Under the pieces are notes generated by a model, which was not told the DNA's origin, ran no database searches, and saw only the letters and a list, made by a program, of their open reading frames with translations. A stretch of DNA of 64,000 bases. Source: Nemertoderma westbladi. Lineage: Eukaryota; Animalia; Xenacoelomorpha. The stretch's first letter is position 1; each line of letters starts with the position of its first letter. The translations under genes and the position numbers were made by a program. The DNA is taken from contig JAUCBJ010007860.1 of assembly GCA_032718475.1 (NCBI GenBank), positions 62,001 through 126,000 of the forward strand, written 5' to 3'. This document shows, piece after piece, positions 11,210 to 63,159 of this stretch.

Positions 11210-11354
11210 CCAACCTTAAATGTATCCCTAATCTCCCACTTAGCTTCCCCAACGCACATTTGTAATAAAACTGAGTAATTCTGAAACAATTTGCTCCAAA
11301 TTATTGATTAATTTTATTCAAAATATAAAATAATATATTAATTTCAAAGAAAAT

Positions 11355-15248: not shown

Positions 15249-15673
15249 ATGAAACATATTATTATTGTGACATTTTTAATCAGAAACTACTTAGAGATTT
15301 CAGGATTAGATATAGCGATAGAAACCCATGGAGGGGATAGAGCAGCTAGAATGATAGCACAAAGCCATGGCTTGCAGTATGTTCGAAAGATTGGTACACT
15401 GCCGCACAAGTACTTGTTACGGACTAATAGTCAGGGCAGGAATATGTTTAAAAAAGAAGTTGATTATAAGGATTTGGGGGAAGACGACAGGGTCGTTTGG
15501 CATGAAGAACAAACTCATCATCAACGAATTAAACGAGGTTCATTGAAAGACATAAAGAGAGAATCTTTAGTAAATGTTAAAAATTATATTCAGGGTCATA
15601 TCAATGATGAGCCAGAAGGATCTCGAGACCATCCCTTAATTGAATTTAATGACCCATTCTACCCTTTGCAGTG
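15249..15673 (+). CDS. Convertase exon 1: signal/prodomain with RIKR cleavage site and FNDP..W
   Basis: Prodomain-like sequence (VVWHEEQ..QRIKR) and [10 protein letters not shown]; donor TG|GTGAGT at 15674. The exact start codon is less certain. Confidence 0.85.
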
Positions 15674-27600: not shown

Positions 27601-30600
27601 CTGGTTGAAGATTATCCCACCGCAATGTCCAAAATGTATGTTATAAAGTGTGAAACCGTGTTTACGTGACAACTTATGTAATTACCGTTCTAGAACGTGA
27701 AGGGTCGGCTATCAGTGTTATATAGCTTAGAGCGCTCGACCTAAAGAGAAAGATATGCCCTATTAAATTCAAAATTGGTGCATAGTTAAATTTAGTCATA
27801 CCATCCACCAATAGTTTATTGTAAATTAATAAAGTGCTCCATGTTCTTAAAATTTTCTTACTTTATTAAACCTAATACGGTAGGGGCGAATTTGATGGAC
27901 ATGAGACCACTGACAACCCATTTTAACAACGGGATCATTCTAAGGCGGCAAACCACCATGTTGGCTCCGTCAACATGGGTCATAGTTAGCGACTTAGCAG
28001 TTCCGCTGCTTGGCGCTAATACTGGGGATGTACATACAGTGAAGTATGTACATTTCTCTGTGTGGGCTAAAAAGCGCATTTAGTTCTCACAGGCAGTCTG
28101 GGGTACATGAATTCACGCCTGTTCATGTACCAAGGAGCGACGATCCGTCGTTTAGCTCTCAGACACGCTAGTGCTTGCCAAAGAGCGGTAAGTTGCTTGA
28201 TGTGTCTCCTCTGGCGAAGATCAAGAGACACTGACTCAGCAAGGTAAGGTCATAGGTATCGGCTCCGTCGTAGTACCTGTTCTTGCCTGCTCCACAGCTG
28301 GCAAAAATGGTTAGTGTAACCTAGGGTGTACTGCTCCGCAGTTACACCCGCGCGCCCAGCTGCAGTTTCGTTACCTGGCAATCGAGGTAAAGTTAGCGCC
28401 TCTAGCACCACAGGTAAGGAAACAAGAATGTAATCGCCTAGTCCCCGACGAAGCGAGAACATGTACCCATCTGCCCCTTGGGACTACAGTAGGGATTCTC
28501 CCAAAGTCTAGTCAGTGTTAACCAAGGGTAAGTACTATCAGCAGTATGTCCAAGGGAGGGAATAGTCCATTCAACTGCAAATGTCAACCAGCAGGCTAAG
28601 TCTTTTGGGTATAAGGAAATTTGCGAGGTTGTTCCGCAACCTCTCAAATTCCTTAGGGGGGAGTGTGACCGTAGCCCAGCCATCCCGGCCATAAGAACCA
28701 TTATATGGGTAGGGGCTTCAATTTCCAATATTCCCTCATCTCTCTTTCCCCATTTAACTACCCACAATACCAATAGTTCTACCATTTCGGCCGCTTCACC
28801 TATTACAGCATTGCCACCGGCCCTTACAGTAGGTGTAGCGTAGCCATGGTATTACTGTGTCATGATTGGGTGCTATTTATAGGTGTATATCATACCGCGC
28901 TCTGTGAGTGGCTGTTGTCTCCCATTCGCTAACGGTTCTACCGCCAAAACCTATAAGGCAGGGCGTTTCTCAACCTCTGCATTATTCCTTCTGCAGTGTA
29001 CCTGACAGCGTGCCATTGCTTCTACCGGAGTTTCTGCCTTTTCAGACATTCAACATCAGTCATTCACAGACCGGCCCATAAAACTCACTTATGCATAACA
29101 ACATCATTCTAAGATCTATTCAACTTTATTATCATGGGTTCGGGAAGGGCGGGAGCTACGCGTTATTAGCGGCTCACAGGTTCATCAGCCAGCAGTGGGG
29201 AATAAATTCTATATAGAATCATTTTGTTGCATTTTATTGCAGCTACCACAAGCAGACTGATCCCCACGCTAGTTTGTTGGTTCAACGAGGTCTCTCTTCT
29301 TGTGGAGAGGTTTTAGTTAACTATAACTTTTCCCTTTCTGCAAAAAAGCACTCCCAACCCCCACTATGGATTACAATTGTAATGCGGAGGTCCGGCCACT
29401 ACAGGCCAGTGGAATTACTGGACACAAATCGGCCTCACAGGCGTCAGTTATTTCCTGACCGTCTCACCCCCGGCTGGTGGAGAGGGATTCTGGAGTTGGA
29501 GGCTACTCTCATGTTCCACCCCGACCAACCAAACCTTTATTGAAACTGTGGCAAGTTACTAGAATAGCCACAGTTAATACTCTAACACTCGGGTCCCTAA
29601 TGCGACAAGGCGAGCTGACTGCCCTGGCAGATAAGGTGTCCCTTAGCGCAGTGTGTATTCAATAGCACCGAAAACGGTCTGGACCGACTGATTAGATTCT
29701 GATTAAGGACATGAGGGGCGGTTGGCGACTCGCCCTCGCATCAGAAGATGAAAGTGAAAATGGTGGAATTGGTCTATTGATGAATCCAACTGCACATGCA
29801 GCATTGGACAAAGTAGACAAAATTTCCAACCGCACCATCCGCCGCCATTTCTTATGTTCTGGAAAACTTGTTAAGAAGTTTCCTAAGGTGGTTCTGATCG
29901 TGTGCTACTCTGCAACTAGTGTTGCCCCTGTAGAGGAGGTGGAAAATTTCTACCAGAATCTACAAGCAGCTACTGATGGAATGGATCAGCATTCATTCTT
30001 AACTTTCCTGGGCGACTTTAATGCAAGTCTACATCAATCATCCACATCGCCCTGGGTCTATACCGATAGTGAAAACCGAAATTCCGTCCATAGTCAGGAT
30101 TTCATCTCTGGAAATGGACTGCTTTCTGCTGGAACTCAGTTCAAGAAGCCTACTGGAAAGCTTTGGACTCACACTGGACCCAGTGTCCACAAGTCCCAGA
30201 TAGACCACATTCTGTTTCGTAGGAAATACAGGAGCTCTGTACAAGACTGTAGTGCATTTACACTTCGACCCTACTCCAGTGATCACCGCCTTATTGTGAT
30301 CAAGGAAAGATGTGGTCTCCGCGCTAGCATAATTACGAAATCTGACATCCCACGGCATGACTGGTCCTCTCTGTTCCAACAGCCCAGAATGAGATCCAGC
30401 TTCACACTAACGCTGAGCAACAGCTACGAGGTTCTCACCTCTGAGGCAACAGATCACTGCGAGTGCTATACTGCCTTCACAGAAGCAGTTAAGTTAGCAG
30501 TTGCAGAAACAGTTTCTGTATACCCTCGAAACAGGAAAAAAGGCCTCCTGGACTGACCACAGAATTCGAAAGTGCCGAAATGACCTCTCTAAGGCGCAGA

Positions 30601-42088: not shown

Positions 42089-42637
42089 TATTAAAAATTT
42101 TAATTATTGTATTCTTCCTGATTCAACAACTTTCTCGATATTGGTTCAGTTTGGCCGTAATCACAGGAAATACAAACCAACTGAACCATACATGTACGTT
42201 TCCGGACCGTATGAAAACAGAATAAATCTGAACTTTCTGAACAATTAAGGAAAAAAGAAATTAAATTCCCCTCCCTCGGAAGAAATTTCATATAAACTAT
42301 TAAATGTCAAAATTTCAAATCTGAAAACCGCTTAGAGAGATCTCTTTTAGTTCTCTAGTTATCGTGGAATATGTCTGTCAAAATGTAAGACAGACAAACA
42401 ACCGACCGACGTAGGCCTACAGACTAGATTCCACTAAATGTTAAAACTGACATCGGAAAAGAAATCAGCGACCCCGAAAACCCATTAAATATAATTTTAG
42501 CTCGGTGGTGTGCTTTCTTCCTGTCAGACAAATTAACCAACCAGACCCCATGCGTTAGTTTTGACTTTGAGCGAGCAGGATTGAACATTTAAGGCAATTA
42601 TCTCTGTATGACATTCTTTCAATCGAAAAATACTACT

Positions 42638-43895
42638 TGTTCGCGCTTTTGAAGACCTTTAGCAGTTTAACCTGCCAAAATTTATATGTCTTTTAGTTAA
42701 TTAAAACCACTTTAGCATATGACAATATTTTATGCTAATACGCAAAACATTAGCCGAAGGCAGCCCATGCGCGATCATTCACCCGATGGATCTACACCCG
42801 GGAGGCTGAATTCGGATGCTTAAATTGTATTATTGCAGTGTAAGGTTGCAGTGTATACCTACTGTATTATTCGATAGATCGTTAATAATTAATCTCTGAC
42901 ATATATTATTGGCTTTCGGGAAATATTAACAGTTCCTTTAGGACGTGGCGCTTTATCTATTTAAACAGAACTAAGACTTATACTAAAACGCAACGATACT
43001 GCTTATGATTAAAGTATAAAGCGTATTCTTTAGGAAATACTTTGTTACCAATCACAATCATACACACTATTCTGCCGACCGTCAGTATATTTGATCATAC
43101 ATAAAGAGAGCAGCAATTGACTCACGTAGGGTCTGCTAAATAACATTGGATTCAATACACACCACATTAATATAAATCGCAATTGTTATGTATAGCCGGT
43201 CTCTCTAACCTGTAGTGTTATCAAGAAAATTGGGAATTTGGGTGATTTATCCGTATTATCCAAAGAGCAATATTTCCATCAACAAATAGGTACAATTAAT
43301 AACTGACAGTAAATAACAGTACAAACAATATGATTAATGCAGTTAAATTAAGTAAGTATGTTAAGATGCGTTAAAATTCGATTGATTAATTAGATTCGAT
43401 TCGGTAACAGTTTATACTTTCGATAATTTAAGCAGTTTTACTAGAGTTCTTCCCAAAAGGCCGGTGTTTCTGGCTTAGACAGCAATAACAACAAAGTATC
43501 AAGTAAAAACAGTAAGACTGAACACTCTCCTTATGATCGGCTGAAAAGCTACACGTCGACAGGAAAAATCGCTCTGATTGGCTCAAGCCAAACAAAGAAC
43601 CATGCGTCCAATGGCTGTTTCCATGTCAGCAACCAGCTGTTAGATGTCGTAATATGAATCATCACGGCTAAGCTGTGAAAGGTAGTTGGTGCATTACAGG
43701 TTTTTTGCCTTACCATGTCCGCCAAAACACGTATATAGCAGAATGATTTTTATGTCCGTTAAAACACCTGTAAAGGTACCTTGCGGGCGAGGGGAATATA
43801 TATACAGTTAGAGAACCCTTTTAGAGTATTCCAGCGCCTGGGGGGAACTGGCCAGCAAAGGCAAACGTATCAGTTATCCCACAAAAGCTTTTACA
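42638..43895 (-). repeat. 3' LTR of element 2
   Basis: Direct repeat of 60201-61458. Confidence 0.95.
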
Positions 43896-43973
43896 CCGCT
43901 CCCAGAAAATGGGATTTAAGTCTATAAAATATACAAAATCACAGTTTCTAAAATATAAAAATACTCTAAACAG

Positions 43974-46900
43974 TTAGTCTTTCTTGCGCGGACGGCGTTT
44001 ACGCAGTTTTTTAAAGCTAGCAAGAGTCCTTTTCTCTTTGGGGCGAGCCACTTTACGAGGAGGGCTATAACTCCTGGGTGAAGGGTGCAATATGATTGCA
44101 TCAGAAGGTATGGGATTGCGATCGGTATATCCGCCGGTCGAAGTACCGGGTTGATTGACCTCAACGTCCGGGGAGAGGGGTCTAACGGCTTTGAGAGCTC
44201 GTTTCAAGACAGCCGCTCTTACGGGTCCTGTACGAGTGGTCTGCACGAGGGCCGTGGGTGGACCATAGGTAGTTAGAAACTTCCTTGGTTTAATGGTTCT
44301 TTCCAACTCGCGTTCGCGGGCTCGGTACTCGTAAGGCCGTCGATATACTTCTTGTAACTCAGGGTGTGAGTTGACGAATAAGTCTCCATAGGCAGGGTCT
44401 TGACGGATAAAGTTTATTAAGTTGTAAGAATGGATGTCACTCGGATTAATGCTCCTGAGGAATTTGCGTACATATTTGGTTGAAATACATTCTCCAACGC
44501 GCTTCAATAGTTCATAACTTGATAGGCGCGATTTTTGCTCGACGGAGGCAAACAAATATGGATGGAACGCATAAACTCCTTCGTAGGCGCGTCCAGGATA
44601 ATAGCGATGGCGTGAATCACAATGTAAATCAGCGTTCGCTTCCCAAGCTCTGATATAACGTAGTACAATCATCTCATCTACGCTCTCTAAATCATGGTTG
44701 AAGGGACAATCAAAGCTGGCGTGTCCTTTTAATTGACAATGATGGCATTGAGTCATAAATTTGGGGCAGACCCCAAAAATGTGCAAATTATTAAGCCGAC
44801 AATATGCACAATAGATTTCCATCGACGGTTGCTTGTGGAAATAGGAACAAAGATCGTTGGTGTCCATAGACGTAATATGGTCTCTCGATGCGCACAGCCG
44901 ACAACGTTGTCTAGAAACATAATTGGCATGGCGATAATCATACGCAGTAAGACACTGGGGACCTTGATACCATTCCAATATGTAGTCGCTATCGCTACTC
45001 CGAGACGTGGGGGGTTGAATCTCTTCAGATTCTAAACATATGGGTTCGTCTTCCCCTTGTATAGTTGAGGTAGGCATGGCCGTCTCCTCAAGTGGACCTA
45101 CCGTCTGAATTTCCACGACAGAATAACCGGTGGGGATCCGAGGTCTTTGAATAACCGAGGAGTGCAGGTTTATTATACAAATGTCTCTGAAAATAGCGAA
45201 TCCAGCGCTATCTAACTTCTCCGCAGCCGAGTCTCTTAAGCTGAGCTTGGTCAAAGCGCGGTCTTTGAATTGGCTATCCACGTTGCGAAACGGGGTTAAA
45301 AACCGTCGGAAACATTCAAAGCGGATGAATTTATTATGTTCATCTAGCTTAGCGAGTTTGGTCCCAAGGATTAATGGATGGGCGCGTATAGTACGACTGC
45401 ACACATCGGCTAGCCAACCGGAAAGTGCGGTGTTTTCGAAGATCGTGTAGATAGCTAAGGAGGGACGGAGTGGAACACTCATGAAGCTATACACGGCGCC
45501 AGGTGCGGTCAACGGTCCGTCAAAGTATAATCGAGAATAATGGTCTCCATATACTTGTTGATAATTGATGGGATTTCCGACCTTGAAATTCCACCCGTAT
45601 TCCTGAAAGGCGAGATGTCCGATGGAAGTTCGTTGCACCTTTGTAATGTTGCTAGACACATTAGCATACATGGTGCGAAAGACCTCGGCCTTCGGCCCAA
45701 GGAGCTATCAGCTGAGTATCCACGAAAGGATAGGGGATATTCTCCATATTCCGAAAGTCGTTTTGGAGATCTCCGTAAACAGCTGAGCCGATTTTAACGA
45801 TTCTTTCGTTGAATAACATCTCGAGAACGGGCTGGGGTAACATCGATCCATCGATACCCATGGCCGGTTTGCGTTCGGTGTCAATGACGTAACGCTGCGC
45901 GAGTTCGAATTGTCTATGTCGGAGATTCTTTTGCGTTTCGGTGAGAGTTTCGAAGGAATAATCGATCACGTCGGAACACGCTCGCGTAAACACGTGAGTG
46001 GAGCCAGCTAATCCGCGTATGTGTATCATGCGCGTAGTTCCTAATTCTCCGATTGGAACGCTACCTTCGTTATCATAAGTAACAACGCCATACATCTCAA
46101 TGATATTAAGAGTTTCATTCCACTCTTTGGTGGCGTTCTCGAGGGTCATCCCTACTGGATGCCACAAGGTGGCGCATTGATTAGCGTCAGGGAGATCACT
46201 ATACTTCATATATCGAGTGGTATACGTCTCCACATTTCCATATCTTTGGATTTTCTCCTCCTCGAATAATACGTCTAGATTTCAATGGACTAATCGAGTT
46301 TTAATAAATCCATCGAGGTTATAAGGAGGTTCTGTATCCTTCTCTATTCGAGAAACGTTGTATGGTTTTCGAAATGAGTTTGCCTTTACTAATTGATCCA
46401 GATGTTTTTGCAATTGTTCGAGTTCGACAATGTCTAGAGGATTTATTAGTGGTAGAAACTTTAAATCATGCGTCGGATCTTCTGGTTTTACCATATAATA
46501 TTGAGTCAGATTAACGTAATAAGGGTGATCTTTAATTCCATAAAAAGAGTTCTGTAAAGGTCTAGCGCGTATGTTGACATCGTGTACCATACGACGGACA
46601 AGATCCGCTCGATTGTCCGGAGGTTCAACGAGTATACCGTCAACTCGAGCGGCCTCGATTGGCGGACGCTGTAACATAGGAGCGTCAGCGATAAGATTTT
46701 GCGATCTTATGCTGATATCAACCGGTTGGGGTTGTATCTTTGCGAAAAGTTTGTCTCCGAAATGCGGAACCATCGAGGGATGACGGACGGTTTTAGAGTA
46801 GAGATCGGTTATGAGTATCTGAGTTTCGGGTTGGGCTAAAGCGGCTTCTTCTCTCTCATCCATTTCCGTATGTCTCTCCTCCATTTGATTCTCCTCCGCC

Positions 46901-48225
46901 TGTTTCTGTAAGCGTTCTTCCAGAAACTCCTGTAGAGAATACGTACGTCCAAGCTCGATGTCCTCTTCGAGGTTTTGGATTTCTCTATCAAACTGCGGCA
47001 AGGCTAGCTCTTTCACCGATTGGACCTGCTGCTGTAATTTACGTTTCTCTAGAAAATCCTGGGTTCCCTTTCCGATTTTCTGTCGGATGGCGTCAAGAGC
47101 GTTTCTGATGACACTCTCCTCGACTTCCGTGGCAGGTTGTATCGGAGTTAATCCTGGCCGGTTGTAAGGATTAAATGGCGATGTTAGATGTCCGCGTCCC
47201 AATCCGGTCAAATAGGATGGTCGAATATCCAACGAACCTACCTCAGGAACACCACCGATTAACTGCTCGGGCAACACCAAATCCTTGAACAGTGAGTATA
47301 ACTCGGGAGGATCAGTGAGACTGTTAGGATCAAGAGTTTGAGGTCTCACGGGGAAATGGGGAGGTCTGACCGAGTATTCCGGAACTCTGATCATGGGTTT
47401 ATTTAGCGATCGTTTTAGACGGGCGATCGTAGGTGATACATCGAACAGGTTTCGCTCGAAACTCCCGTAAGTATAACGCGTGAAACTGTGTTTAGCACAA
47501 CGTCTCCGCGGATGTTTATGTCTTTCCGTTTGCTGGTTAGGTCTAGGACATGAGTCACAATAATACCAAAGACGTACGTCCTGCAGAGGAAACGCGGGTG
47601 ATCGTTCACCAGTTTTGCAATACTCTTCCATTTGTTCAAAACTGTCCGGGACAACAGGCAGTGGACGATCTGCGGTAAGATACATCATGGTGAAATAGAG
47701 TCGTTTGAGTTCTACCATGGGATCGTGATGTATACCTTGAGGATATCGAGTCTCTAGGTTCTGTTGACTGGCAATATTGAGATAGGTTTCCCGCAAAAAT
47801 TCCACGTAGTCGTTGAAGTTGATACGCTTATCGGGTTCTTCAACGTTTTCTCTGTCGAGTAGGTGGCGAATAGAGTTCTCGTGTTCTATTCTCGGTTTAT
47901 CATTACGATTCCGCTGAGAATGATATTTAAATAAAACCATTTCCCTTTCAGTGTCTACATCATCGGTATCATGTAAATCGGTGGGATGGCCGGTAGTTAA
48001 GAAGTCCATATACGTACCATTGCGATTCGTATAGCGAGCGGTGAATTTTCTATAGTCCGCTTCACGCGTAAGTTGTTCCTGGGACATCGGCGGTTTGATG
48101 TAACGACCGTCGTCCTCCGTAATAGTCGGATCGGCTTCACCGCGTATCAAGCTATCCACAAACGCTTGTAAAGGTAGAGTATATCGCTCTCTAATACCAA
48201 GGTCATCTTCTATCAATTCCGTCAT
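43974..48225 (-). pseudogene. Cargo gene of element 2 (~1,400 codons): CxxC region, coiled coil, DEDD-like 3'-5' exonuclease and CCHC-like knuckles; one in-frame TGA and one frameshift
   Basis: The 647-aa and 190-aa ORFs share a frame, separated only by TGA at 46284-46282. The 190-aa and 565-aa ORFs overlap by a 1-nt shift near 45680. Exonuclease-like motifs: VVTYDNEG, LPQPVLEMLFNERIVKIGSAVYGD, FVDTQ, SIGHLAFQEYG, PLRPSLAIYTIFE. Confidence 0.7.
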
Positions 48226-49844
48226 ATCTGCTATCTGAGTTTGTTAATATCAATATAAATTAGTATTTTAGGCAAGCGGGCGTCGCTGCCTATTAGGCTT
48301 TTTGCCCCCGGACAGTGGGTTTCTCAGCGCCGATGTACCGTTGTCGCAGTGTTTACGCCAACATGTAGCAACAGCACGACAACGATAACCGGCACAAGTC
48401 CCACCACTGTCCGTCCCAAAGGCTTGAATCCACTTGAGGTTATCTCGGTAGAGTTAGGGCTATTTTACAATTGCGATTAGCTACTGTAAACACACTTTAG
48501 TAGTAACATTCACCTATAAACGCACAAGTTCCATACAATCATTACTTACTGCACACATGCATGCCATTTGTCCGTTAGTCAGTGTCTTCCAGAATGTCAC
48601 GTTATTACTATGTATCCTTGGATACTAATAGTGCGCTATGTATACTCTTATGCTACGCAATGGGACAAGCTTTTATTGTTCCTTTAACTTGCTTCTAATT
48701 CTAGCGTGGGTGTTGCCATGGTGACATTATGGAAAACTAGCGGTAGAATTAGGGCAATTCTCATGTATACAGATCTGGGATGTTATTTAATAGTAATTCT
48801 TTAATTGTCAATATCCTCTTTATGCATGATTTTATAAATTTTATCGGCTATTGACTATATGTTGGAGATTCTCGCACTCTAATACACTCAATTTGAATCT
48901 CCGCTCCCATGATCTATTAATTACTGGAATTTTGGGAATGTTATAAATTGTACAAAATGACAATTTATGAAATTCATTTGAATATGAATTTAAATTTATT
49001 CCCGTGAATTTTATTATTTGATATTAAATTGACATAAATTTTATTCCAGAGCATATCTGGGGACTCAGGATCCTTAATTCTGTAAAATAGTCCTTCTAAG
49101 AATATCGGTAAATACTGCGATATCTTAATTGACTAGAAATTTTAAAGGATCGGGATTTTACAGATTTTAACAAATATTAAATTAATATTTAGGATGGGCA
49201 CCAATTTATTCCAGAACTTGTCTGGGGACGTTAACCACTGATTCTAGAATTTGTCTTTCAAGTATATCGGTGGGTGCCACGATATCTTAATCGACTAGAA
49301 TTACAGATGGTCAAAAGTTTAACAGATTTATTTGCGATTGACGCTACTGTTAGAGGGACATCACGCTACTATATGTATTATTTGTTATAAGGTAGAAGAG
49401 CAATATCGCACGAAGCAATGTCAGTGTGAAGAGGCAAGTCGTTTCCAAGGTCTACCCAGAGCCTGGTTTAGCCGAGACACGAGGATCTGAACTTTGCATT
49501 CCTAATACTCTGCCTACCAATAATACTTAAATATAGTAGTGGCTTTATTGTACTTTAAGAAGTACGGACATGTCATCTTACTATAGTCTCGTATTTATAA
49601 TATAATACGGACAGTAAGGAAAGAGAAAATAATTACTTCTTGCCGTCGCACTAAATATATATTATAAGTAATTATGTACGTAATAAACACTAATATATTG
49701 CACTAATCTACTAAACATTCTAAAATAACATTTTACTAAATAAAATCAAATAAAAACGATTATAATAAAGTACATAATAGAGTTCGCATATAAAATGTAA
49801 TAAAATCGATAAATTAATATAGTCATACACCCACTCCAGACGTA

Positions 49845-52800
49845 TCACGTTTGGGAGTCCCTAGATGTTTGAGGTATTAGGGAGGTGGTCGTGGGAAGAG
49901 TGTCTTGTCTTCCATAGTTTCCGGAGAGTTCTCTGTCTCTTTCCAGCAAACATAAACGACCAACTGGGCGATTGAGTTGTTGCGTCTCAAAGATTATTCC
50001 GGGTTTCTTGAAGTTACGCCTCATTACGACGAGTTCTACTGAGCGCACTAGACCATCCTCCGAGATGTGCGTCTCGATGATACGACCGATCTGCCACCGT
50101 CTACGTGGGAGGTCCGGATCTACAATAAGGACCATGTCTCCGGCGCTGACATTTTCCTGCTGCGCAAACCACTTAGTTCGAAGTTGTAGCGTGGGCAGAT
50201 AATGTTTCTCAAAATGGTCAGCGAAACGACGGGATAGCAACTGCATAAGCTGCCAAGTTCGACGACAGTATTCATCTCCATCGGCAATCTCGGATTGTGG
50301 GAGCATGGCTACAGGTTTCTTAAGTAGGAAATGCGCGGGTGTTAGCGCTTCCAGGGAGTCGACACTCGATGAGACTGGCATAAGCGGTCTCTCGTTAAGA
50401 TAGGCAGCGATTTCTTCCATTAACGTCCGTAGAAGTTCGTCGGTGAGATATGCGCGGCACGGCACTATAAAGTGAAATGCGGTCTTGACACTTCGAATTA
50501 ATCTCTCCCAACTTCCTCCCCACCAAGGGGCGTCGGCGGCGTTAAAGGTCCAGCTAGACGCCGTTATCCGTAGCTGGTCATCCACCTGTCTTTGATTCCA
50601 GTCCTTTACGTAAGCCTGGATTTCGTTGTTGGCACCAATGAAGTTCGTTCCCTTGTCGGATCTCATCGTATTGCTAGTGCCGAAACGAGCGATCTGTCGT
50701 CGTAGACATAAGACGAAGCTGTTAGTAGATAGATCGTTCACCATATCGAGATGGATAGCTCTACAAGTCATGCAGACAAAGATTACACACCATCTCTTGA
50801 TTATAGTTCTAGCACGATATACTTCAATAGGGCCAAATAAATCCACACCAGTATTAGTAAAGGGTGGTTCATAAAAGCTTACTCGTTCCCTAGGTAATTC
50901 TGCCTCTCGCTGTGTTAAAGGCCTACTGAATACTTTCCTACAAGGTATGCAGTTCCTAAGAACTTGATTCAGAGCTCTACGTGGTTTATGAAAATAATAG
51001 CGGGTTCGAATCTCGCTAAGAACTCGTTCTCTACCAGCATGATACAGTTTACTGTGAACATCTACAATCATCTTGATTTGTACTTCAAGATTACTAATGA
51101 GTATAGGGAATTTAGTATCAAAAGATAATGGAGCGTTGGTAAGTCTTCCTCCAACGCGTATTAACCCATCTATCATTGTGCTAGAGAAGCGATCCCTTAA
51201 GCGCATCTGCGGATTTCTTAATAGCAGAAAATACCTATCGGAATCTTCATAGCATTGCAATAGTCTCAGTAGCTGCTTATTAGTTTCTTCATGCTCCTGG
51301 TAGCTGATCTTCTCCTTTAGAAACCGGTCTGATATCTTGTACTTAGGTAGATCTTTAATAACATGAACTTGCGCAGATGTTACCGGAGCAGGATCACTAG
51401 TGGTCTTCTTCCTGGAGTAATGATGGTGAAAACATCTCTTTAAGTATGTGACAGCTTTACAGAGACGATTCCAGGAACTGTAATGATGCAGTGCTCTCTG
51501 CAGCAGGGGTGAGATTCCTTGCGAGACGTCTGGTATCTCAGATTTCCAATTTCTATCTCTAATTTCCACAACAGATTTGTTTGTGGCGAGGGATTGTGGA
51601 TCCGAAGTATCGTTCTTGGCAGTATGTAATACAGATAGATCGATTGTCGGTTTAAATAACTTCGATTTACTTGTCCGAATTTTGGGTTTGACTTTCTCCG
51701 CTCCCTTGGCTTGTCTAATCTCAGCCGTAGTAAGGTGAGGAGGCCATTCATCCTCTTCCTTGCTTAAGAAGTCGGGTCCACCCAACCAGTCAGGGGTATC
51801 TATCAGTTCCTGTGGAGTTGCTCCTCTGGAGGCGATGTCAGCTGGGTTAATCGTACCAGGGCAATGTCTCCATTGATCTATCGTTGTGCGACTAAGAATA
51901 ATGGCCACTCTGTTAGTAACAAAGACGCTGAACTGACAGACTTCATTCGTTATATATTCCAATACAAGTAAAGCGTCGGTCCAATAAACGGTTTTCTCCA
52001 GTGGATAATCGATCTGTTCTGTTACATTCCGTCCGATAGCGGTAGCGTATAATGCTGCCTTTAACTCCGCTCGAGGAACCTTAAGCTTGTTGTTAATCAA
52101 TGCCTTAGAGGTAACCAAGGTAACTTTGATTCCATCCGGAGTTTCGACTCGCAGATATGCTATGATACCGATCCCCATATCGCTGGCATCTCCAAATACA
52201 TGGAGTTGATAGGAATACGTAGGGAGAACATGACCAAAATATGAACGGGAAATTATAAAGTTCTCGATGGCAGGTAGCGAATCCTCCCATTTCATCCATT
52301 TCTTTAATAGTTCTCCCTTGAGTGGATCGTCCCACGAGTGGTTTTCTAGCCACATTTGTTGTACTAAACTCCGAGCAATCAATATAACTGGGCTAATAAA
52401 TCCCAAGGGATCGAAATAAGTGCTCAGAATACTTAAACAAATCCGTTTGGTCCGAACTGGATTATCTCGCTGTTTTAACTGAAAAAACAGGATGTCCCGT
52501 TCTGTGTCCCATTTCAAGCCAAGCGTCTTGGTTTCCGGAAGATCATCATGTATTAAGTCGAGATCTTTTGATCCCCGGTCTTCTACAGATATTGCTTCCA
52601 GAAACTCACGGGAGTTGCTGGTGAACTTCGTCAACCGAAATCCACCTCTTTTCAAACACTCAACCGTTCCTTTCGCGACATCAATGGCTTCCTTTACTGA
52701 TGGAAGGGACTTTAAATTGTCGTCCATGTATATGTCTCGTTTGATGTTATCTATCACCTCTTTGGAGAAGGCATCCCGGTTGTCATCCGCAGTGGTACGG

Positions 52801-55800
52801 ACCACTGAACAGGCGTTTGAAGGGCTTGATATAATCCCAAAAGCCTGGATGGTCATCCAGTACTCTACCGGTGTCTGGTTGAGATCTCCTTCAGGCCACC
52901 ACAGGAATCTTAGGCTGTCTCTATCACGATCCAACGCCTTGACTTGTAGGAACATTCCTTCTATATCGGAGGCGAACGCGATGGAATATTGTCTTAATCT
53001 CAACAGTATCCCCAACAAAGATTGGAGCAAGTTGGGTCCTGGTAACAACTCGGAATTAAGGGATTGGCCCATATATAGAGCGGAGCCATCAAATACAACC
53101 CGTACTTCATGGGGTTTACCGGGTTTGGGAACATAATGATGTGTTAGATAATAAGTCCTTTCAGTTATTGGAGTTCCTTCCGGTACTCGCTCCGCATATC
53201 CCTTTGTGATAAATTTCTTCAACTGAGTCTGGTACATTTCCTTAGCTGAAGCGTTCGCCGTCAGACGTCGATGTAATTGATTGATTCTTTTCTCAGCCAA
53301 GGGTCTGTTATTTATAAATCTGGGTTCACGTTTTCGGAAGGGTAGTCCGATTTCATATCTACCTTGATCTTTTAAAAAACGTGTGGTTGTTTCCTGGATT
53401 TGCTTGGCTCTTTCTTCTTCTATCGACAGGGCTTTGTCGTATGAATTGGGTTCTACCAATTCTTGGGTAAAGAATCGTACGGCGAGTTCGTCCCGAGTTC
53501 TAGCGTTGTAGCGCTCTACCTCGTCATTAAGTTCGTCATTATAAATAGTGGATTCCGTTGGGCGAATCAATTGACATAGGTTCGTTTGGTTTTTCCAAGT
53601 TTGGTTTTCAGTAAGTAGGTCAATTGTGTTCTCTTCTTCGAAGAGTTGGTAGATGTCGTCATTATCTGAGGAGTATGGGGTTCCCTCAGTTGGTTCGTCC
53701 ACTTCGCTGTTTTCCTCTTCCCAATCACTTACCTGATCTATTTGTTCGTGTGGCATTCTCTCTTCTAAAGTTCTACGGGAAGGGCCAGTAAAGTACCAAC
53801 CTACTCTAGTTCTTACCGCATAAGTTTGCAGTGGCTGTGGTTGAGCAGGCCGTTTCTCTAATGTTTCTAGCGCCTCGTGCGCGTTTTGGCCGATAAGTAT
53901 TTGCACTCCAGGATAATCTGTCTGGAATCGAGGTATCTTAAGGTGTTGGACGCTCTCATCTTCGTCCCAATCATAAAGGTCTGCTTGAGTAGTAGCAAAG
54001 TTCTTTATAGCCACCATTTTTACTGACCTTACACCTTGTGTTCCTAACTTATCCTGGGGGGTGGACAACACACCTACATAGTAATCTGCCGTCAGGGTAG
54101 ATTTCCAAACCTGCATAATTCCTGACATATTCAATTTAGTCCGGAACTTGGGTTGTCCAGCAAAGATATCTTCGGCTAGCTCTTGATCGATGAATGTTCC
54201 TGTGCTGCCTGAGTCAAGTAGGGCGTTCACTATGTAGCTTTTGTTAATACCATGAACTCTTACCTGAACTACAGGAAATTCTCTGATTCCTACATTGGAA
54301 GTTGGAGCTTTCCAAGATGATTGTTTGGTAAAAGTAGTAGGGGGAAACTCCTCGTTGATGTCCTTTTCGTAAGTAAGTGCTCGATACACTGTGGTGTTTA
54401 TTAAATAACAGGATTCGTTGACGTCGGAGAATTCGTCAGTATAAAATCCTTCCATCTCAGACTCCTGATCAGTGTCGTTTACATCACTGAATTGGACATG
54501 TAGTTCGGACTCACTTACCTGACTCGGCTTGTCTCGTTCGAACTCACTATGTAACAAGATGTGATGTTTCGCACCACACTTTTCACACTTTATGTCGGAG
54601 TAACAGGTTCGCCGTTGGTGTCCTGGTCTGAGGCAATTATAGCATAACCGCTTGTCCCACACAACTGTACGTCTGTCTACAAGGGATTTCTTTAGAAATT
54701 CCGCACACGCACTCAAACGGTGGGTCCCGTCGCACAGCGCACAGTTAGGTTTTATGTTACTTACTTTACCTTGGGTAGTCTGATGCACTCTCGTTCTTTC
54801 TTCGGGCTTTCTTCCGCGCATTCTGCTAGGAGACTGAGGAGGGGTCTTAGTAACCTGTTCTCTCCTATTGTTGGTTCGAGCTTTGTATTTACTTACGTCC
54901 TTAGAGGTCTTGTCAATATAATAAGATCGTTCGGTGTCTTTCCCGCTGTCTTCGTCTTGGGAAGCTTGGCTTTCGCCGTCGTCAGTGTAACACACCGGTG
55001 TTACTCTCCTCCTAGAAGTAGGTTTCTCACTTACCTTATTTTCCGATGTTTTCTCTCTGGACTGCTTGATGAGTTGTAATTTGACTTCACCATCTAAGAA
55101 AGACATGAGATCAGCCATGGTAGGACTTCGTCGTTGTTGTTCATTCATGTACAACACTTTCTTGTCCCAGCGTGTACATACTCCACCCTTTGGTAAAGTA
55201 GAGACTACGGCTCCAATAACCATGGAACTCTGGTATTCGTGCGACTTACCTAACCAGTCCAGTTGTCTACAGATCTCTTGAATTTCATCGGAAAACTCTA
55301 TAATCCCACTGCTAAGGAAGTGTCGGGGGGCTACTAATTTTGCATACAAATACTTAGCTATGTTATCCTTGTTACCATACCTGATGTTTAATGTATCCCA
55401 AACTTGTCTTAATCCATCTGGATGTCCAATAAACTTTAACGCCATTAACTTGGGAGGTCCTTCCAAACACTTGATGAGGAATCTAAGTTTCTCTCCGTTA
55501 GATAGTACAGAGTTCTGTATACTATCTTTGTAATATTCGTTGAAAGGTAACCATTTCATCTCATCTCCATTGAATTTGACGATCTCTCCCACTTTGACCG
55601 CTTGGCGGGCTTCTGTTCTAGCCATCTGACGCGTAAAGCTTTCTTGGGCCATCGCGTTATTTAATATCGAATTATCGGTATACAAATTTCTCGGATCATT
55701 ATCAGGTCTATAGGGAATATCATTAATAACAGGTCTATAATCACCCTTAATAGGGTTTGCTATAGGAGTTTCAACTTCACTAGCAGTATAGATGCGTGTA

Positions 55801-58022
55801 GGCTCCACACCTTGCGCATGTAATACTTCAGACCTAACGGGTTGACACAGTGTTACAGGGGGCATTGGTATGCCTTTTTGTATATTGACTAATTTGTCGC
55901 GTTCTAGCGCGATGCTTTGCTGCACTTCTTGCAACTCTGCTCTACCTTCCCTCACTGTTCCCTTAAGTTGGTGGACAGTCTCCTGCATCTGTCCCAGCAG
56001 GAGATTCATCCCCCGCCGTCCCTCTTCCACCCACTCAACCGCCGAAGCGGGAGTCGCCAACATAGTAGCGGGCTGACGCGGGACGACGGGAGACAAATTA
56101 TTGATTTCTCTCTCCGCTATCTGGACAGGGGTATTTGCAGGGACTGTTCCACCGGGTACAGGCAGTGTAGTGCTATGTAAAGGGAATTTAGAGTTAAGCT
56201 CTGGAAGTGTAGGGGTCTCTAGCACAGAAGTGACTTTGGGAACTACAGGCCTAATTATTTCAGGTTCATCGACTATAGTAGGGAGTCTTTTGACCTGGAT
56301 AAATTGTTCCATGGGTTCTGCACTACCTAAATCTGTGCTAGTTAGCTGTCTTTTAACAGCTGGGGGCAAATCAGGCAATTTGCGACGGTAATATGTTTTT
56401 CTTCGTCTACTTAGATGGGATCTATTTCCTCCGCCTTCAGGGTCGGTAGTATCGCCTTCCTCCGAGGATGTGTACCCCTGGCGCTTGGGAGTAGATTTTC
56501 TCATCATCTGCATTTGATTAGCAGTAAACTGTTTATTTATACTGTCTTGTGTCTCTTGCAGATTCTCCAACTCCAGTTGAGCAGTCTGCTCAAATGCTCT
56601 CCTTTCTGCTTCTGCGACTGCCTTTGCCACCGCCTTTGCTGCTTTTCTTTCTGCTTCTGCATCTGCCTTTGCCACCGCCTTTGCTGCTTTTCTTTCTGCT
56701 TCTGCATCTGCAGCCGCTGCCTTTCTTTCTGCTTCTGCATCTGCCTTTGCCACCGCCTTTGCTGCTTTACTTTCTGCTTCTGCATCTGCTATAGCCGCCG
56801 CCATAGCCGCCGTTTTTTGTTCATCTATCCTTCTTTTCTTTATTTGTTCTTCTCGGACTCTAGTGAGGCGGAGTTTTTCATCACATTCAGCTTGGTTTGC
56901 AGCTAACATTTCGGCATCGATTGAGTCCAACACAAGCTTGGTTCCTTCACTATTAGGGGAAAGTCCAGACAGCCGTCTCCTCAACTCTTCGTCTCCTAGG
57001 AATCGCTGATAGTCGGACAAATAAATGTCGATAGCGTCTCTAGTTCGCGGTTTCTCGGCGGCCTCTTCGCTTTCCGCTTGAGCAAGGGTGACATCAGTTG
57101 GTTCGGTGACATCAGTTGGTTCGGTGACATCAGTTGGTTCTTCATAGGTTGATCTCTCAGCCAGCTGGGATTTCCACTGGGCTGTTTCCTGTACTTTGAG
57201 ATCTACCCGATGTAGCCAAGTTTTGACAGCAACCTGCAGCGACGTGTCCTGTCTTCTTTTGGAAGTTTCCTCAAAGGCTGAGAGGATTAGTCGAATGCGT
57301 AGGGTTCTTTCGCGTACTTGGTATAGCAGCTCTTCCTACTCTTGAGGTCCGTGAGGTTGTCGAAACAGTTGTTCTTCCAATCGCTCCAAGGATCCGAAGA
57401 ATCCCTGCACATATCCTGCTGCCGACCTCTTCCAAACAGCTGGATCCATTGTATCTTTAGCCACTCCCATCCTGTGTATATCTTCCCAAGTAGCCTCGGA
57501 CATATCCAACGGAAGTCCGAGTCCGGGAATGTTCCATTGTGATTCAACAATAGATATCAATTCTTCCCTGGCGTATCCCGCGTAATTATCTTGGGTCGCT
57601 CACTTATTCTTCGCCCAGTCGGCTTGATGTTCCTCCACCGCAATGAATATAGTAGTTAGCACTGCAGCAGGAAGAGTAAGAAGGGGGTCCGAGTAGACTG
57701 TATCAGACATCTGCACTCCATGTTCGGGAGTCAGCTCTACAGTATCCGAACTGCTGGAGCTATCGGGTCGCTGTGAAGTAGGTTCTTGACCAAGATGTTG
57801 CTGCGATAGGACAACTGCCTCCTGGTCCCGTTTTACCTGTGCCCGAGTGCCTATGATGGACCTATGGTGGACTAGCCTAGGGTCTGATACTACTGGAGGG
57901 ATGACCTTTTTTACAGTAGGAGGTGAGCCGAACTCCTTTCTTATTCGCTCCACACTCCTATCTGAATCACAAATAGTTGTATCGATCAGACTGTCTGACA
58001 GGTTTTGCTGAGTGTCAGACAT
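49845..58022 (-). CDS. BEL/Pao gag-pol of element 2 (~2,725 codons; two in-frame stops in the N-terminal part)
   Basis: Single frame from ATG 58022, with TGA at 57602-57600 and TAG at 57338-57336. Three BEL Zn knuckles (CALC.., CYNC.., CEKC..HH), LLDSGS, YMDD, FGDAS, HHCC, GVDLFGP, SDKGTNF, WERLI. Confidence 0.93.
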
Positions 58023-59379
58023 GTTTAGTTATACAGTTGAATGTCTACTACTATAGTTTCAGTTAAAGCAAGTCTGGTAATTCAGTATGACCGCAAGCCT
58101 AGCGATTTATTACCGGTACCGTTACTCGGTGTAACGTGATATATACACAATATATTAGAATACCGGTATGCTTATAATATATAAGTATTATTACAGACTA
58201 GATTTGTCACAGAGTACCGGTATATAATTTTAGCACAAATATATATATATATAGTAGGCCTATAATGAATACCGGTATACAGCTTACACTTACAGCATGT
58301 AAGTATAATTATGAACTAGAATTAATTACAGAGTACCGGTATGATTTCAGCTCAAATTTATAGAGATAAATATAATAAGCCTATAGTGAGTACCGGTATG
58401 TCAATTATTTTAGAATAATTGAATCTCTGAATATTTTAGGGCTACTTGGTTACTTTAACTTACTTTGTTACCGTTATTTAAGCAGTAGTCCAACTGATAG
58501 TGAGACCTAGTTGTTGTATGGCAGGCCTACTATTTATAAATCGTTTGAGTTGATTTATAATATTTATATACCCGTTATATGGGTTTTTGTCAATATTTGA
58601 AATAAATGTTATTATTTCTGGGGGAGTCACTACACAGAAGCTGAACGCCTCTCAGTGAAGTACTATTTATTTGACACTAAAACTGATAATTCTAATTTAC
58701 CTAAGTTACTTAATACTACAAATTACTTACGATACGGGTGAGATCAATTCTCTAATTAAACACAACAAAATATTACGTACGAAATTTTTAGGGTAATTTT
58801 ACAGGAAGTCTACAAACCAGTCCAACAAAGGGTTAGATTTCTGGTTATTACAAAGGACAGGGTACTACGGTATTTAAATAATAAGTAGTAGTAAATATAT
58901 TGTACTGTCCAGATAGGAAAATACCACCGCCTGACGACCTATAACCGTATCGCTATAGGTACTACGTTATGTATCCCGGATTGTTCCTACCCAGAAGCTA
59001 ATAGAGCTAACGAATGTGCCTATCAACCACTTTACAACACAAATATACTGCCTACACTAATTACTTCGGAAAGCACTGTACACTAAACCCTAAATTAGGT
59101 ACAAGTACCGGTATAACAAATAATCAGTAGTTAAATATACTTGAACAGTTAAAAGAACCACGGCATCTGCTGGAGTGACCGAAGCACAAAGTCGTCAGTC
59201 TTTACCTACGCCAAGCAGCCCTGATGTAGTACCGGGGTTAGTTTAACTATAACGGTATGTGTAACAAACACAATTACTGTAGGAATAAACTTGGGGACAT
59301 GAATGTTGCGAATAATCGCATAAACTCTGAATAATAAATATTACGCTACCCGTACAGAATACTCAAACAAATACAAACC

Positions 59380-59900
59380 AAAACGCTGGCAGACTACTAT
59401 CAAGCCTAAACAAACTACAGTATGTGCAGATTCTGAAACTGTTAGTTAGTATGCGTTCTAACACGGTAGTACGACTTACTCTTTAAGAGGGGATTGACCT
59501 TACCGCTTATGGCTGCCCCAACTTACTAACGGCACTTTATCAGACCAACTCTACACACGCAGCAATCCCTTCAGGCCTAAGAATAGCTAGACAACAATCC
59601 AGCCTACCAATATTTGAGTAATAACTATTACGGTACCTGAACAGACCACACAAACAAGCACAGGCTAAAACACTGGCAGACTACGATCAAGCCTAGATAA
59701 ACTACAGTATATGCAGACTCTGAAACTGTTAGTTAGTATGCGTTCTAACACGGTAGTACGACTTATTCTTTAAGAGGGGATTGACCTTACCGCATATGGC
59801 TGCCCCAACTTACTAACGGCACTTTATCAGACAAACTCTACACACGCCGTAATCTCTCCAAACTCAACAACAGTCAGACAGCAGCTCAGCCTACAATTAT
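59380..59900. repeat. ~287-bp tandem duplication in the 5' leader of element 2
   Basis: Two copies starting near 59380 and 59667, with a well-conserved ~190-bp core. Confidence 0.85.
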
Positions 59901-60200
59901 CTGAACAATCTGAGCAGGGTCACACGCCTTCTGCTCAATATTAGCCTACTAGTAAATAAAACCGACAGAAATAAGTAGGATCTCAAATAAAAATCAGGGC
60001 GGCCGTTCCCCGATTAAGTACCAAGACCTACCGGTATACAACAATCAAAATCGAATAATACTAATGTACTTGTACAGCAGTACCGGTACCGGTGATGACA
60101 GTTAGGCCTACTGACCTACAGAAGCACCGGTTCAGTTTTACCAGTCACTACGGTATTTTGCAACCTTATTGCTTACTGCAATAAGATTATAAACTGTTAC

Positions 60201-61458
60201 TGTTCGCGCTTTTGAAGACCTTTAGCAGTTTAACCTGCCAAAATTTATATGTCTTTTAGTTAATTAAAACCACTTTAGCATATGACAATATTTTATGCTA
60301 ATACGCAAAACATTAGCCGAAGGCAGCCCATGCGCGATCATTCACCCGATGGATCTACACCCGGGAGGCTGAATTCGGATGCTTAAATTGTATTATTGCA
60401 GTGTAAGGTTGCAGTGTATACCTACTGTATTATTCGATAGATCGTTAATAATTAATCTCTGACAGATATTATTGGCTTTCGGGAAATATTAACAGTTCCT
60501 TTAGGACGTGGCGCTTTATCTATTTAAACAGAACTAAGACTTATACTAAAACGCAACGATACTGCTTATGATTAAAGTATAAAGCATATTCTTTAGGAAA
60601 TACTTTGTTACCAATCACAATCATACACACTATTCTGCCGACCGTCAGTATATTTGATCATACATAAAGAGAGCAGCAATTGACTCACGTAGGGTCTGCT
60701 AAATAACATTGGATTCAATACACACCACATTAATATAAATCGCAATTGTTATGTATAGCCGGTCTCTCTAACCTGTAGTGTTATCAAGAAAATTGGGAAT
60801 TTGGGTGATTTATCCGTATTATCCAAAGAGCAATATTTCCATCAACAAATAGGTACAATTAATAACTGACAGTAAATAACAGTACAAACAATATGATTAA
60901 TGCAGTTAAATTAAGTAAGTATGTTAAGATGCGTTAAAATTCGATTGATTAATTAGATTCGATTCGGTAACAGTTTATACTTTCGATAATTTAAGCAGTT
61001 TTACTAGAGTTCTTCCCAAAAGGCCGGTGTTTCTGGCTTAGACAGCAATAACAACAAAGTATCAAGTAAAAACAGTAAGACTGAACACTCTCCTTATGAT
61101 CGGCTGAAAAGCTACACGTCGACAGGAAAAATCGCTCTGATTGGCTCAAGCCAAACAAAGAACCATGCGTCCAATGGCTGTTTCCATGTCAGCAACCAGC
61201 TGTTAGATGTCGTAATATGAATCATCACGGCTAAGCTGTGAAAGGTAGTTGGTGCATTACAGGTTTTTTGCCTTACCATGTCCGCCAAAACACGTATATA
61301 GCAGAATGATTTTTATGTCCGTTAAAACACCTGTAAAGGTACCTTGCGGGCGAGGGGAATATATATACAGTTAGAGAACCCTTTTAGAGTATTCCAGCGC
61401 CTGGGGGGAACTGGCCAGCAAAGGCAAACGTATCAGTTATCCCACAAAAGCTTTTACA
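60201..61458 (-). repeat. 5' LTR of element 2
   Basis: Direct repeat of 42638-43895; sense-strand CCAAT-like (near 61140) and TCAGT Inr-like (near 61083) motifs. Confidence 0.95.
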
Positions 61459-61463
61459 CTACT

Positions 61464-61715
61464 CCTCCGCCATTTCTCAACCGTTTTTTGCAATTTTTGA
61501 TTTATATGAAAGGTAATTTCATAAGCTTCATAAATTTCGACCAGTTTTATGATTTCATAATATTTCCCCACTTTTTTATTATTTTTTATATATTTCCCCA
61601 CTTTTTTAATATTTTTTATATATTTTCCAATTATCAGAAATAGAAAATGAAAATACAAAAAGTGGTCGAAAAATATTATGAAAATGAACATGCTGGTTTC
61701 AAAAAATGTGGTATC
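61464..61715 (-). repeat. Dispersed repeat copy B (the target of element 2)
   Basis: Reverse complement of 39875-40126. Confidence 0.85.
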
Positions 61716-63159
61716 AAAAAGAAAATAACGGAGGAGTAGGGTCTAGTCTTTTAAGCGAAATTTTTCAAATCTCAAGCCAGCCGCTAGGTGGCGTCAAAAA
61801 TGTTTTTTCACACTTTTATTTACTTTTTAGTTCATTATCTTTTCGATGGTATATCGTTTTGTGCGCATTTTTCAACCACATTGGAGATATAAGAAGGGGG
61901 GGGGGGGGGGTACCTGATGACGAATAAAGTTCCTGACGTATGATAGCGGATTGTAGTTCCCCTGTACTACAGTACAATGATGGACCTTATGCTTATATGA
62001 TCCCCGATTGTACAGAATGTTCCCGGTCCGTATAATAACAGATTGTATGTCCCCCTATTCCTATTGTATAAGGGGTTACATTATTTTTTAGTTTTTTATT
62101 ATATTTCTATTATTTTAGTTCCAATTAGGTCTAGAGTTCAAGGTCTCGTCGGTTGCAGAACATGTTTCGTAATGGTGGACTGCCGGTAATTTTGAAATAA
62201 GGGGCTTACTGTGGCTTTGGATTGTGAGCTTGTATTTCATTCACACAGTATAGTTCAAAATGGAGACTTAAATTACCTTCAGATATTTCGACATCTAGTG
62301 TGAAATGGATAGAATGGCAAACTCAGATGGATCAGTGTCAACATAGATACGCAGCTTTTGGTCTAGTAAATATCTGCCCAAGTTTCAGCATAAACGAATT
62401 TAAACCAATGAAATAGGAGACGGTTTTCTCTTTTAAACATTTCACGTCTAGCGCTAGACTGGAGAATTGCAGAAAGTTCAGTGTCTTCGCGAAGAAGCAG
62501 TCTGTGGCGATCTGCAAATTTTAAAATGTTTTCACTTTAACACGTTGCTCCATCTAGCGGTAGAAATAAAAACTGCACATAGATAATATAAGCTTACAGT
62601 ACACAGAAAGACCAAAAACTGGTTTGCAAATTTTTCTCGAAACTTTTAACATAATACAGATCACGTGTTCCACGTTGGTTACATTTAATCGAGGATTGAA
62701 GTTGAAAAGGACTATTATTTGATTAAAAAAAAAAGTACGCAGAAAACACCGTTTTGTTCACTAATTGTCAATTTATCGAAATTCACTTGCCGAGTGTTGA
62801 GTTTTACACAAGTTTTTAGAATGTCAACGAGTAGAAAACTCAACGCACGTACAGTTAATAAGGTATTATTGAACTGTTTTGTGGTATTTTGGTGTATTCT
62901 GTGTGATATTTTGGGTAATTCGAAGGACCCGAAGATTCGAATAAATGTAGCATCATCATTCTCATTAAATTTTGCAGATCGTCAAGAATGATGATACTAC
63001 TGTATTAGGCCTATGGTTTACCAAGTCCGGTACTTCTCGTTTTCATTCTGCTCGATGGGCCGGGTGGGGCTATACATGTACCGTTATTATAATTCAGTGA
63101 TTGTACAGTACTATTTGGGGCGAGCCACGCAGTCAGGGCGAGCCTTAGCGCACAATTAT

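Follow-up and report, generated by a model that had tools for sequence, protein, structure and literature searches.

A multi-copy BEL/Pao retrotransposon of Nemertoderma westbladi with a primer-binding site complementary to its own long terminal repeat and a nuclease-like third gene

Introduction

A 64,000-nt stretch of the Nemertoderma westbladi genome (assembly GCA_032718475.1, contig JAUCBJ010007860.1, positions 62,001 to 126,000; called the window here, with positions numbered within it) carries a BEL/Pao long terminal repeat (LTR) retrotransposon of 18,821 nt on its minus strand (42638-61458). The element has a primer-binding site (PBS) that matches its own LTR and, behind gag-pol, a third gene (open reading frame 3, ORF3, or cargo) that appears to encode an exonuclease-like protein. 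An earlier note on this DNA read these features as one coupled new system. The locus raises the question of whether the unusual priming site and the nuclease-like gene belong together, and of what the gene does. Two traits, each already described in different retrotransposon groups, occur together in the element, and the evidence is that of independent traits, not of one new system. The reading that we prefer, and to which we give an even chance, is that the window holds a broken copy of a multi-copy BEL/Pao family that would likely be self-primed, and whose third gene would likely encode an accessory protein that binds RNA and whose nuclease activity is slight or absent.

Results

Element structure and identity

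The element was assigned to BEL/Pao because it gave Pfam matches to Peptidase_A17, DUF1759 and DUF5641 and has intact protease (PR), reverse transcriptase (RT), RNase H (RH) and integrase (IN) motifs. These lie in the order PR-RT-RH-IN, and the DUF1759 Gag carries a triple Cys-His box. TG...CA ends on both LTRs, a short target duplication and a polypurine tract were also found. The two LTRs differ at 2 positions, the 5-bp target duplication CTACT is present on both sides, and a paralogous empty site near 40132 confirms the insertion. The earlier note had described a young 18.8-kb BEL/Pao element with 1.26-kb LTRs, a 2.2-kb leader, a gag-pol of about 2,725 codons and a 4.25-kb cargo, and the measurements agree with it on each count (Table 1). 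The lengths of the internal parts are consistent with the total: the leader has 2,178 nt, gag-pol 8,178 nt, the spacer 1,619 nt and the cargo 4,252 nt, and 78 nt remain before the 3' LTR. AATAAA is absent from the LTR.

Table 1. Positions of the element and its parts in the window.
Feature	Position	Strand	Remarks
Right target-site duplication CTACT	61459..61463		end of 280-nt MITE-like repeat
5' LTR	60201..61458	-	1,258 nt; CCAAT-like boxes at LTR nt 284 and 315, initiator (Inr)-like TCAGT at nt 375
Predicted self-primer, LTR nt 480-492	60967..60979	-	13 nt complementary to PBS
Candidate splice donor for cargo mRNA, LTR nt 687	60764..60775	-	one contig joint in run X5; weak
Primer-binding site	60188..60200	-	13 nt, directly after the LTR's CA; no TGG start
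Predicted 10-bp hairpin stacked beside PBS duplex	60163..60187	-	from fold
Leader	58023..60200	-	2,178 nt; donor-like sites, 11 ACCGGT palindromes
287-nt tandem duplication in leader	59328..59909	-	units 85% alike; two donor-like sites and one TACTAAC per unit
gag-pol	49845..58022	-	2,725 codons (2,726 with stop), Gag-PR-RT-RH-IN
AT-rich spacer	48226..49844	-	1,619 nt
Candidate branch point 48457 and acceptor 48444	in spacer	-	~220 nt before cargo ATG
Cargo ORF3	43974..48225	-	4,252 nt, ~1,417 codons
Putative DEDDy 3'-5' exonuclease-like domain	45477..46086	-	motifs placed by pattern
Motif I, D-x-E	46074-46066	-	
Motif II, D	45771-45769	-	
Motif III, Y present, final acid apparently missing	45491-45477	-	
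Three Cys/His zinc-knuckle-like motifs	44706..44903	-	last one canonical CX2CX4HX4C
Short polypurine tract before 3' LTR	43896..43903	-	
3' LTR	42638..43895	-	1,258 nt
Left target-site duplication CTACT	42633..42637		

The closest relatives by RT-RH, among the proteins listed, were 40-44% identical and included proteins of marine invertebrates. In an RT tree of 103 sequences (FastTree, midpoint root, at least 350 aligned residues per locus) the element sits on a long branch of its own with weak support (0.72). The tree held no reference elements of the named clades Suzu, Sinbad, Tas, Pao, Dan and Flow. RT searches of viral contigs, Rfam on the element and ARAGORN on the 64-kb window gave no match.

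Gag-pol is about 600 residues longer than in typical relatives, in part because the long N-terminus of gag contains tandem repeats (56595-56789 and 57087-57140). A miniature inverted-repeat transposable element (MITE)-like repeat with 11-bp inverted ends lies at 61459-61738 and at 39875-40131. The latter, 2.5 kb left of the element, is an identical inverted copy of 257 nt with the same left insertion-site flank. A 258-nt inverted repeat was considered as the ends of an enclosing DNA transposon and rejected, being the MITE-like repeat and its empty-site copy.

Primer-binding site

The 13 nt directly after the 5' LTR, read from 60200 to 60188, are the exact reverse complement of LTR nt 480-492. 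None of 5,000 dinucleotide shuffles reached 13 nt, and the match is the only one of that length among ~16,300 internal positions. Under looser rules, which allowed PBS offsets of 0-5 or G-U pairs, 3 of 500 and 1 of 200 shuffles reached the match. The first 8 nt of the PBS contain no TGG, the start of a tRNA-type site. In an 839-nt fold beginning at nt 480 the duplex formed with a pair probability of ~0.89, beside a U5 stem and the leader hairpin. The self-complementary site described in the earlier note is therefore real, and the LTR match and the missing TGG make it likely that the element primes with its own RNA, independently of tRNA. The RNA may start at nt 480, or near nt 377 as the CCAAT-like and Inr-like motifs of the LTR would allow, or the site may be used from the 3' end of the RNA. 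A splice-junction primer was rejected for this element, as the match is contiguous and spans no junction with a canonical donor.

Three points weigh against this interpretation. The duplex probability falls to 0.46 when the RNA starts two bases earlier, at nt 478. Transcription start, cleavage site and primer are all predictions here. The element also does not fall among its self-priming relatives (see below) on the tree, so their behaviour serves as analogy only.

Relatives without the cargo

We compared the best 80 of at least 554 related loci from metagenome contigs (37 of 64 parts of the collection). None of the 80 had a match to the cargo (best E 0.2), and of nine extra ORFs scanned in the relatives three were gag from an adjoining copy, three were flanking genes and three had no assignment. 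Terminal direct repeats were present in 35 loci. We kept the 15 in which the LTR end was clear for both copies; of the others, 15 were cut by a contig end, 4 had no clean end and 1 was a duplicate. Loci of the same family were merged (L034 with L028, and L061, which has no junction, with L066), giving 13 families of 6-8 kb each. For L005, L025 and L040 the 5' LTR copy was used, which gave a better match than the 3' copy.

The PBS begins with TGG in 3 of the 13 families and does not in the other 10, so a tRNA-type site is not universal in BEL/Pao. In 7 of 13 families (L012, L020, L022, L028/L034, L039, L040 and L066) the PBS pairs over 10-15 nt across a GT[AG]AG...AG junction in the element's own LTR. 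Such pairing was reached by 1 of 2,800 shuffled PBSs and by 4 of 182 cross pairs, which all came from a single clade with a common PBS core. The paired letters differ from family to family, and the changes in the PBS preserve pairing with the family's own LTR. L025 has the PBS of its clade, without a canonical donor. Contiguous 10-nt self-matches of weak significance (reached by 10 and 8 of 200 shuffles) occurred in 2 of 13 families. A T-rich tract with AG before the relatives' sites was tried as a transcription start and rejected, since the splice-junction test fits better.

Because these 6-8 kb relatives have self-complementary sites and no cargo, BEL/Pao self-priming does not need the nuclease, and priming and cargo are predicted, by analogy with them, to be independent traits. 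The co-occurrence of cargo and PBS complementarity, for which the earlier note proposed a test, was not seen among the relatives (0 of 80 loci with cargo, 7 of 13 families self-pairing). The note's coupled system is not supported by this comparison, and DEDDy ORF3s had in any case been published in LTR elements (PMC5408684, from the part of the text available).

The relatives also bear on a different explanation, in which the primer comes from the host, be it a tRNA half, a fragment or a different small RNA, and the LTR match is a by-product. Belpaoviridae are tRNA-primed according to the international committee for virus taxonomy (ICTV; PMC8742986), copia elements with half-tRNA primers exist in the partly available literature, and the first six bases of the PBS site resemble a TATA box or a variant poly(A) signal. 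We nevertheless consider host-RNA priming quite improbable, given a perfect 13-nt match from the first base after the LTR and relatives in which letters have changed while pairing was kept.

The window holds a second BEL/Pao element (17807-29266, plus strand, ~11.5 kb). Its LTRs are 99.4% alike, the 3' one being cut after AATAAA. At 9 candidate LTR ends it showed neither a tRNA-type PBS nor a self-match (8 nt at best).

The cargo gene

The cargo protein has no transmembrane or hydrophobic segment (maximum 19-residue Kyte-Doolittle value 1.3), and an env was rejected on this ground. It appears instead to contain, as judged by motifs and remote similarity, a DEDDy 3'-5' exonuclease-like domain, apparently without the fourth catalytic acid, and three zinc knuckles. 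NCBIfam gave an RNase D match to the nuclease region with E 0.006 over 42 residues. The pairwise score of this region against RNase D was 117, while shuffles scored 47 ± 8 and 0 of 1,000 reached it. In the Atlas, the best matches to the nuclease piece carry PF01612 (score 0.92), and the top cluster is mostly from Rotifera.

Other results count against the domain assignment or keep it remote. Pfam and the PDB had no match for the nuclease region, and HMMER found 0 matches to the 206-residue nuclease piece among 1.84 billion proteins. The top Atlas match shared 156 common features, fewer than the 170 typical of true family members, and PF01612 occurred in just 17% of the top cluster. The pairwise alignment with RNase D itself aligned neither motif I nor motif III. 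Both were assigned from their patterns, and 64 residues downstream of the assigned motif I there is another D-x-E. A word-based homolog search with the 206-residue piece (longer proteins only), another with 430 residues of the last cargo piece (proteins of 311-993 residues) and cargo searches of viral contigs and phages were blank; a plasmid search gave four matches, one of them a weak match to RNase D (E 2). All Atlas scores for the last cargo piece were under 0.8. The single-sequence fold of the nuclease domain (predicted local distance difference test, pLDDT, 30) was unusable, and the 653-residue first cargo piece was scanned with Pfam, NCBIfam and tblastn only. With WRN-type spacing, the stretch between motifs I and II would hold an insertion of ~40 residues.

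At motif III the cargo keeps the PLT-5-Y spacing of RNase D, but has Ser where RNase D has Asp. In the 40 of 123 variable sites that were listed, no variant fell on the motif I and II acids or the motif-III position despite high depth; the apparent lack of the motif-III acid is therefore probably a family trait. Loss of this acid usually cripples two-metal catalysis.

The nuclease region is under purifying selection, as judged from codon positions: 32 of 39 listed variable sites lie at position 3 (P 5e-10), counted from those 40 rows with the stop site excluded. That 40 of 123 sites were listed weighs against this count. Among the 11 cargo rows of another variant listing, mostly private differences, only 5 are at codon position 3. 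The earlier note's description of the cargo as a non-env, nuclease-like gene held up, and the gene was family-wide (next section) as well as under selection.

These results were weighed against the proposal that the cargo has 3'-5' exonuclease activity and uses it to shorten an LTR-derived RNA as far as the PBS duplex, or to trim the plus-strand overhang of a long primer. A self-complementary PBS and a nuclease-like cargo do occur in one family, the motif I and II acids are present with no variant listed at them, and an RNA start near nt 377 would make the primer site internal and in need of processing. Yet relatives with self-complementary sites, including internal splice-junction ones, manage without the cargo, Tf1 manages with RNase H alone, and the motif-III acid is apparently missing. 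We regard primer trimming as unlikely, and the earlier note's suggestion that the nuclease makes the primer is not borne out.

State of this copy and its family

We mapped contigs from 4 of the 11 sequencing runs listed (123,711 pieces from run X1, 85-100% likeness), with depth not equated with copy number. All 30 bins of the element, the cargo included, were covered in 4 of 4 runs. The window copy is broken at four places, by stops at 57600-57602 and 57336-57338 in gag and, in the cargo, by a stop at 46282-46284 and a frame break near 45681. At 57600-57602 the other reading made up ~99% or more of the depth in the 3 runs covering the site, at 46282-46284 it made up all depth in 4 runs, and near 45681 it made up 42-100%. 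These three breaks are private to the window copy, and the family is multi-copy. Since four breaks exceed the number predicted from LTR divergence (Poisson P 0.0007-0.009), this copy probably arose, with movement in trans, from a template that was itself broken, or else it contains assembly errors.

If the cargo were a host gene picked up passively, or the product of a single insertion, and had no role for the element, this would explain why no homolog was found in the other elements searched and why the window copy's cargo is broken. In 4 of 4 runs, though, the whole family carries the cargo, so it is not unique to one copy; its breaks are private and its variation is mostly at third positions. 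This largely refutes a passenger cargo, which we consider extremely doubtful.

Contig joints in 4 of 4 runs omit ~1.7 kb of integrase (49980-51691) and of RT-RH (51880-53656), which suggests an internally deleted, non-autonomous subfamily.

Candidate cargo mRNA and leader

One contig of run X5 links LTR nt 686 to 48443. The joint falls precisely on GT..AG boundaries, and a CTAAC lies 13 nt upstream of the acceptor. The joint matches the layout of an env-type spliced mRNA and is a lead. It weighs against a firmer reading that this is a single contig of a single run whose kind was guessed, with 21 letters on the short side, and one of 15 joints shown of 120. Separately, one deep contig of run X5 omits 2.8 kb of the cargo (45055-47867), including the nuclease domain, with an AG end and no GT donor in the window copy.

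The leader had been described as carrying duplicated splice modules. The 287-nt duplication is real, and contigs carrying a single unit occur in 3 of 4 runs. Both TACTAAC of the leader lie within it and therefore represent one event. The splice content is less marked, as donor-like sites are in modest excess (10 against 4.9 expected, P ~0.02) and no strong splice acceptor was found in the leader. ACCGGT is enriched in the leaders of both BEL elements of the window, with 11 copies against 0.3 expected at 58023-60200 and 4 against 0.14 at 18398-18700 (0 of 300 shuffles each). These palindromes are possibly sites for a host factor.

Other features of the window

A 31-nt satellite of ~357 copies fills window positions 1-11200 and ends just before an uninterrupted 479-codon HD-domain ORF (11334-12773), SAMHD1-like by eye. 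A furin-like proprotein convertase gene extends over 15219-42088, with Pfam S8 and P domains at 40808-42088 and exons apparently spread around nested repeats. A 32-nt unit of exon end and donor occurs in three copies at 15657-15753.

Discussion

Under the preferred reading of a self-primed element with an RNA-binding accessory protein, folding of the genomic RNA would bring LTR nt 480-492 into a duplex with the PBS, and the element's own RNase H would likely cut 3' of the duplex, as in Tf1, and free the primer end. The 1,417-residue protein, whose DEDDy fold and three zinc knuckles would likely bind RNA, would be made from another RNA, probably one in which LTR nt 686 is spliced to the acceptor ahead of the cargo, as env mRNAs are. 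The most plausible, though hypothetical, role of this protein would be shielding the long element RNA from small-RNA silencing components, or sequestering those components. Interference with such silencing was also among the roles suggested in the earlier note. Egalitarian, a relative of RNase D, has an RNA-binding role. The Discussion of PMC5408684, as far as available, names Maelstrom and EXD1 as inactive DEDD derivatives in PIWI-interacting RNA (piRNA) biogenesis. Like the cargo protein as predicted here, they combine a DEDD fold, an incomplete catalytic set and RNA binding; they are host proteins, and the likeness is drawn with no sequence similarity shown.

It is also conceivable, although rather unlikely in our judgement, that the cargo works, apart from any part in priming, as a functional nuclease of non-canonical type and breaks down or shortens small RNAs or other RNAs of the host. 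The domain is under purifying selection and keeps the Tyr along with three of the four acids, a deviation to DEED is already seen in rotifer elements, and the zinc knuckles could serve RNA binding. The crippling effect of losing the motif-III acid argues the other way, as does the available text of PMC5408684, according to which activity of such ORFs is not demonstrated.

That the nuclease proofreads reverse transcription and permits a large genome, in the manner of nidovirus ExoN, seems highly improbable. The element's length is 2.5-fold the 7.4-kb median for BEL/Pao, and among the elements compared it alone carried the cargo. Against this, cargo and spacer themselves make up ~5.9 kb of the excess, the motif-III acid is apparently missing, the protein is not fused to RT, and LTR elements of more than 25 kb have been described without such a domain (PMC6431247, as far as the available text goes). 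In a 62-genome survey, within the parts available, BEL/Pao has a median of 7.4 kb, and its maxima reach 21-22.8 kb for six of seven superfamilies, maybe including nested inserts (PMC3118150, file S9); its BEL/Pao maxima exceed the 18.8 kb found here and speak against a new system in which the nuclease makes the primer or proofreads.

The boldest combination would be a BEL/Pao element free of tRNA priming that makes its own non-canonical 3'-5' nuclease from an env-style spliced mRNA and uses it to mature the self-primer or strand-transfer ends. We think this improbable; if true, it would be the first retroelement with a dedicated primer-processing enzyme.

Juno and Vesta, LTR elements of bdelloid rotifers, are gypsy-like and lie outside BEL/Pao, whereas the carrier in the window is BEL/Pao. 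Both carry a DEDDy ORF3 for which 3'-end processing and silencing roles were proposed (PMC5408684, in its available part). Like the window element, they have a non-env third ORF with an RNase D-like DEDDy domain, no transmembrane segment and Cys/His motifs. By the same source they differ in having LTRs of 159-551 bp and intact DEED acids, against LTRs of 1,258 nt, an apparently missing motif-III acid and an ORF of ~1,417 codons here. The portion of PMC6338049 available calls DEDDy a well-known accessory domain.

Self-priming has been published for Tf1/sushi, Tj1, Tcn1 and copia TAR elements (PMC4600332, PMC6317226, PMC7175516, PMC3601003 and PMC5443660, all as partly available). In Tf1 an 11-nt primer is the mapped RNA 5' end, cut by RNase H (PMC7175516, in the text at hand). 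Tf1/Tf2/Tj1, Tf1/sushi and the plant Tcn1 and TAR elements share with the window element a PBS directly after the LTR that is complementary to a segment of the same LTR. According to these sources, the hosts of Tf1-type and TAR priming are gypsy or copia elements, whereas the Pol of the window element is BEL/Pao, so that it is not a Tf1/sushi member; its match is 13 nt long. Larger gypsy elements exist (PMC6431247, as accessible).

ICTV describes Belpaoviridae as 4.2-10 kb long with an 18-nt PBS for the 3' end of a host tRNA and env as third gene, and calls BEL/Pao replication poorly understood and tRNA-primed (PMC8742986). The window element resembles them in the Gag-PR-RT-RH-IN order, the A17, DUF1759 and DUF5641 domains, the TG...CA LTRs and the 5-bp target duplication, and differs in its 18.8 kb, its lack of a tRNA-type PBS and its nuclease-like third gene. 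The accessible part of PMC554778 does not address priming. Our literature search, whose scope excluded most subscription papers, Repbase, Dfam and the sequence supplements of PMC3118150, found no report of self-priming or of a DEDDy gene in BEL/Pao.

Self-priming, published for the gypsy and copia groups, is thus indicated in BEL/Pao too, both with a contiguous match and with one across a splice junction. Cer7, a BEL element of nematodes, is said to have a self-encoded primer RNA; it did not turn up in the literature search. DEDDy third genes are extended beyond rotifers by this family, which, being multi-copy and conserved and having a candidate cargo mRNA, offers a practical place to ask what ORF3s do, a question dating from 2017 (PMC5408684, in the text available).

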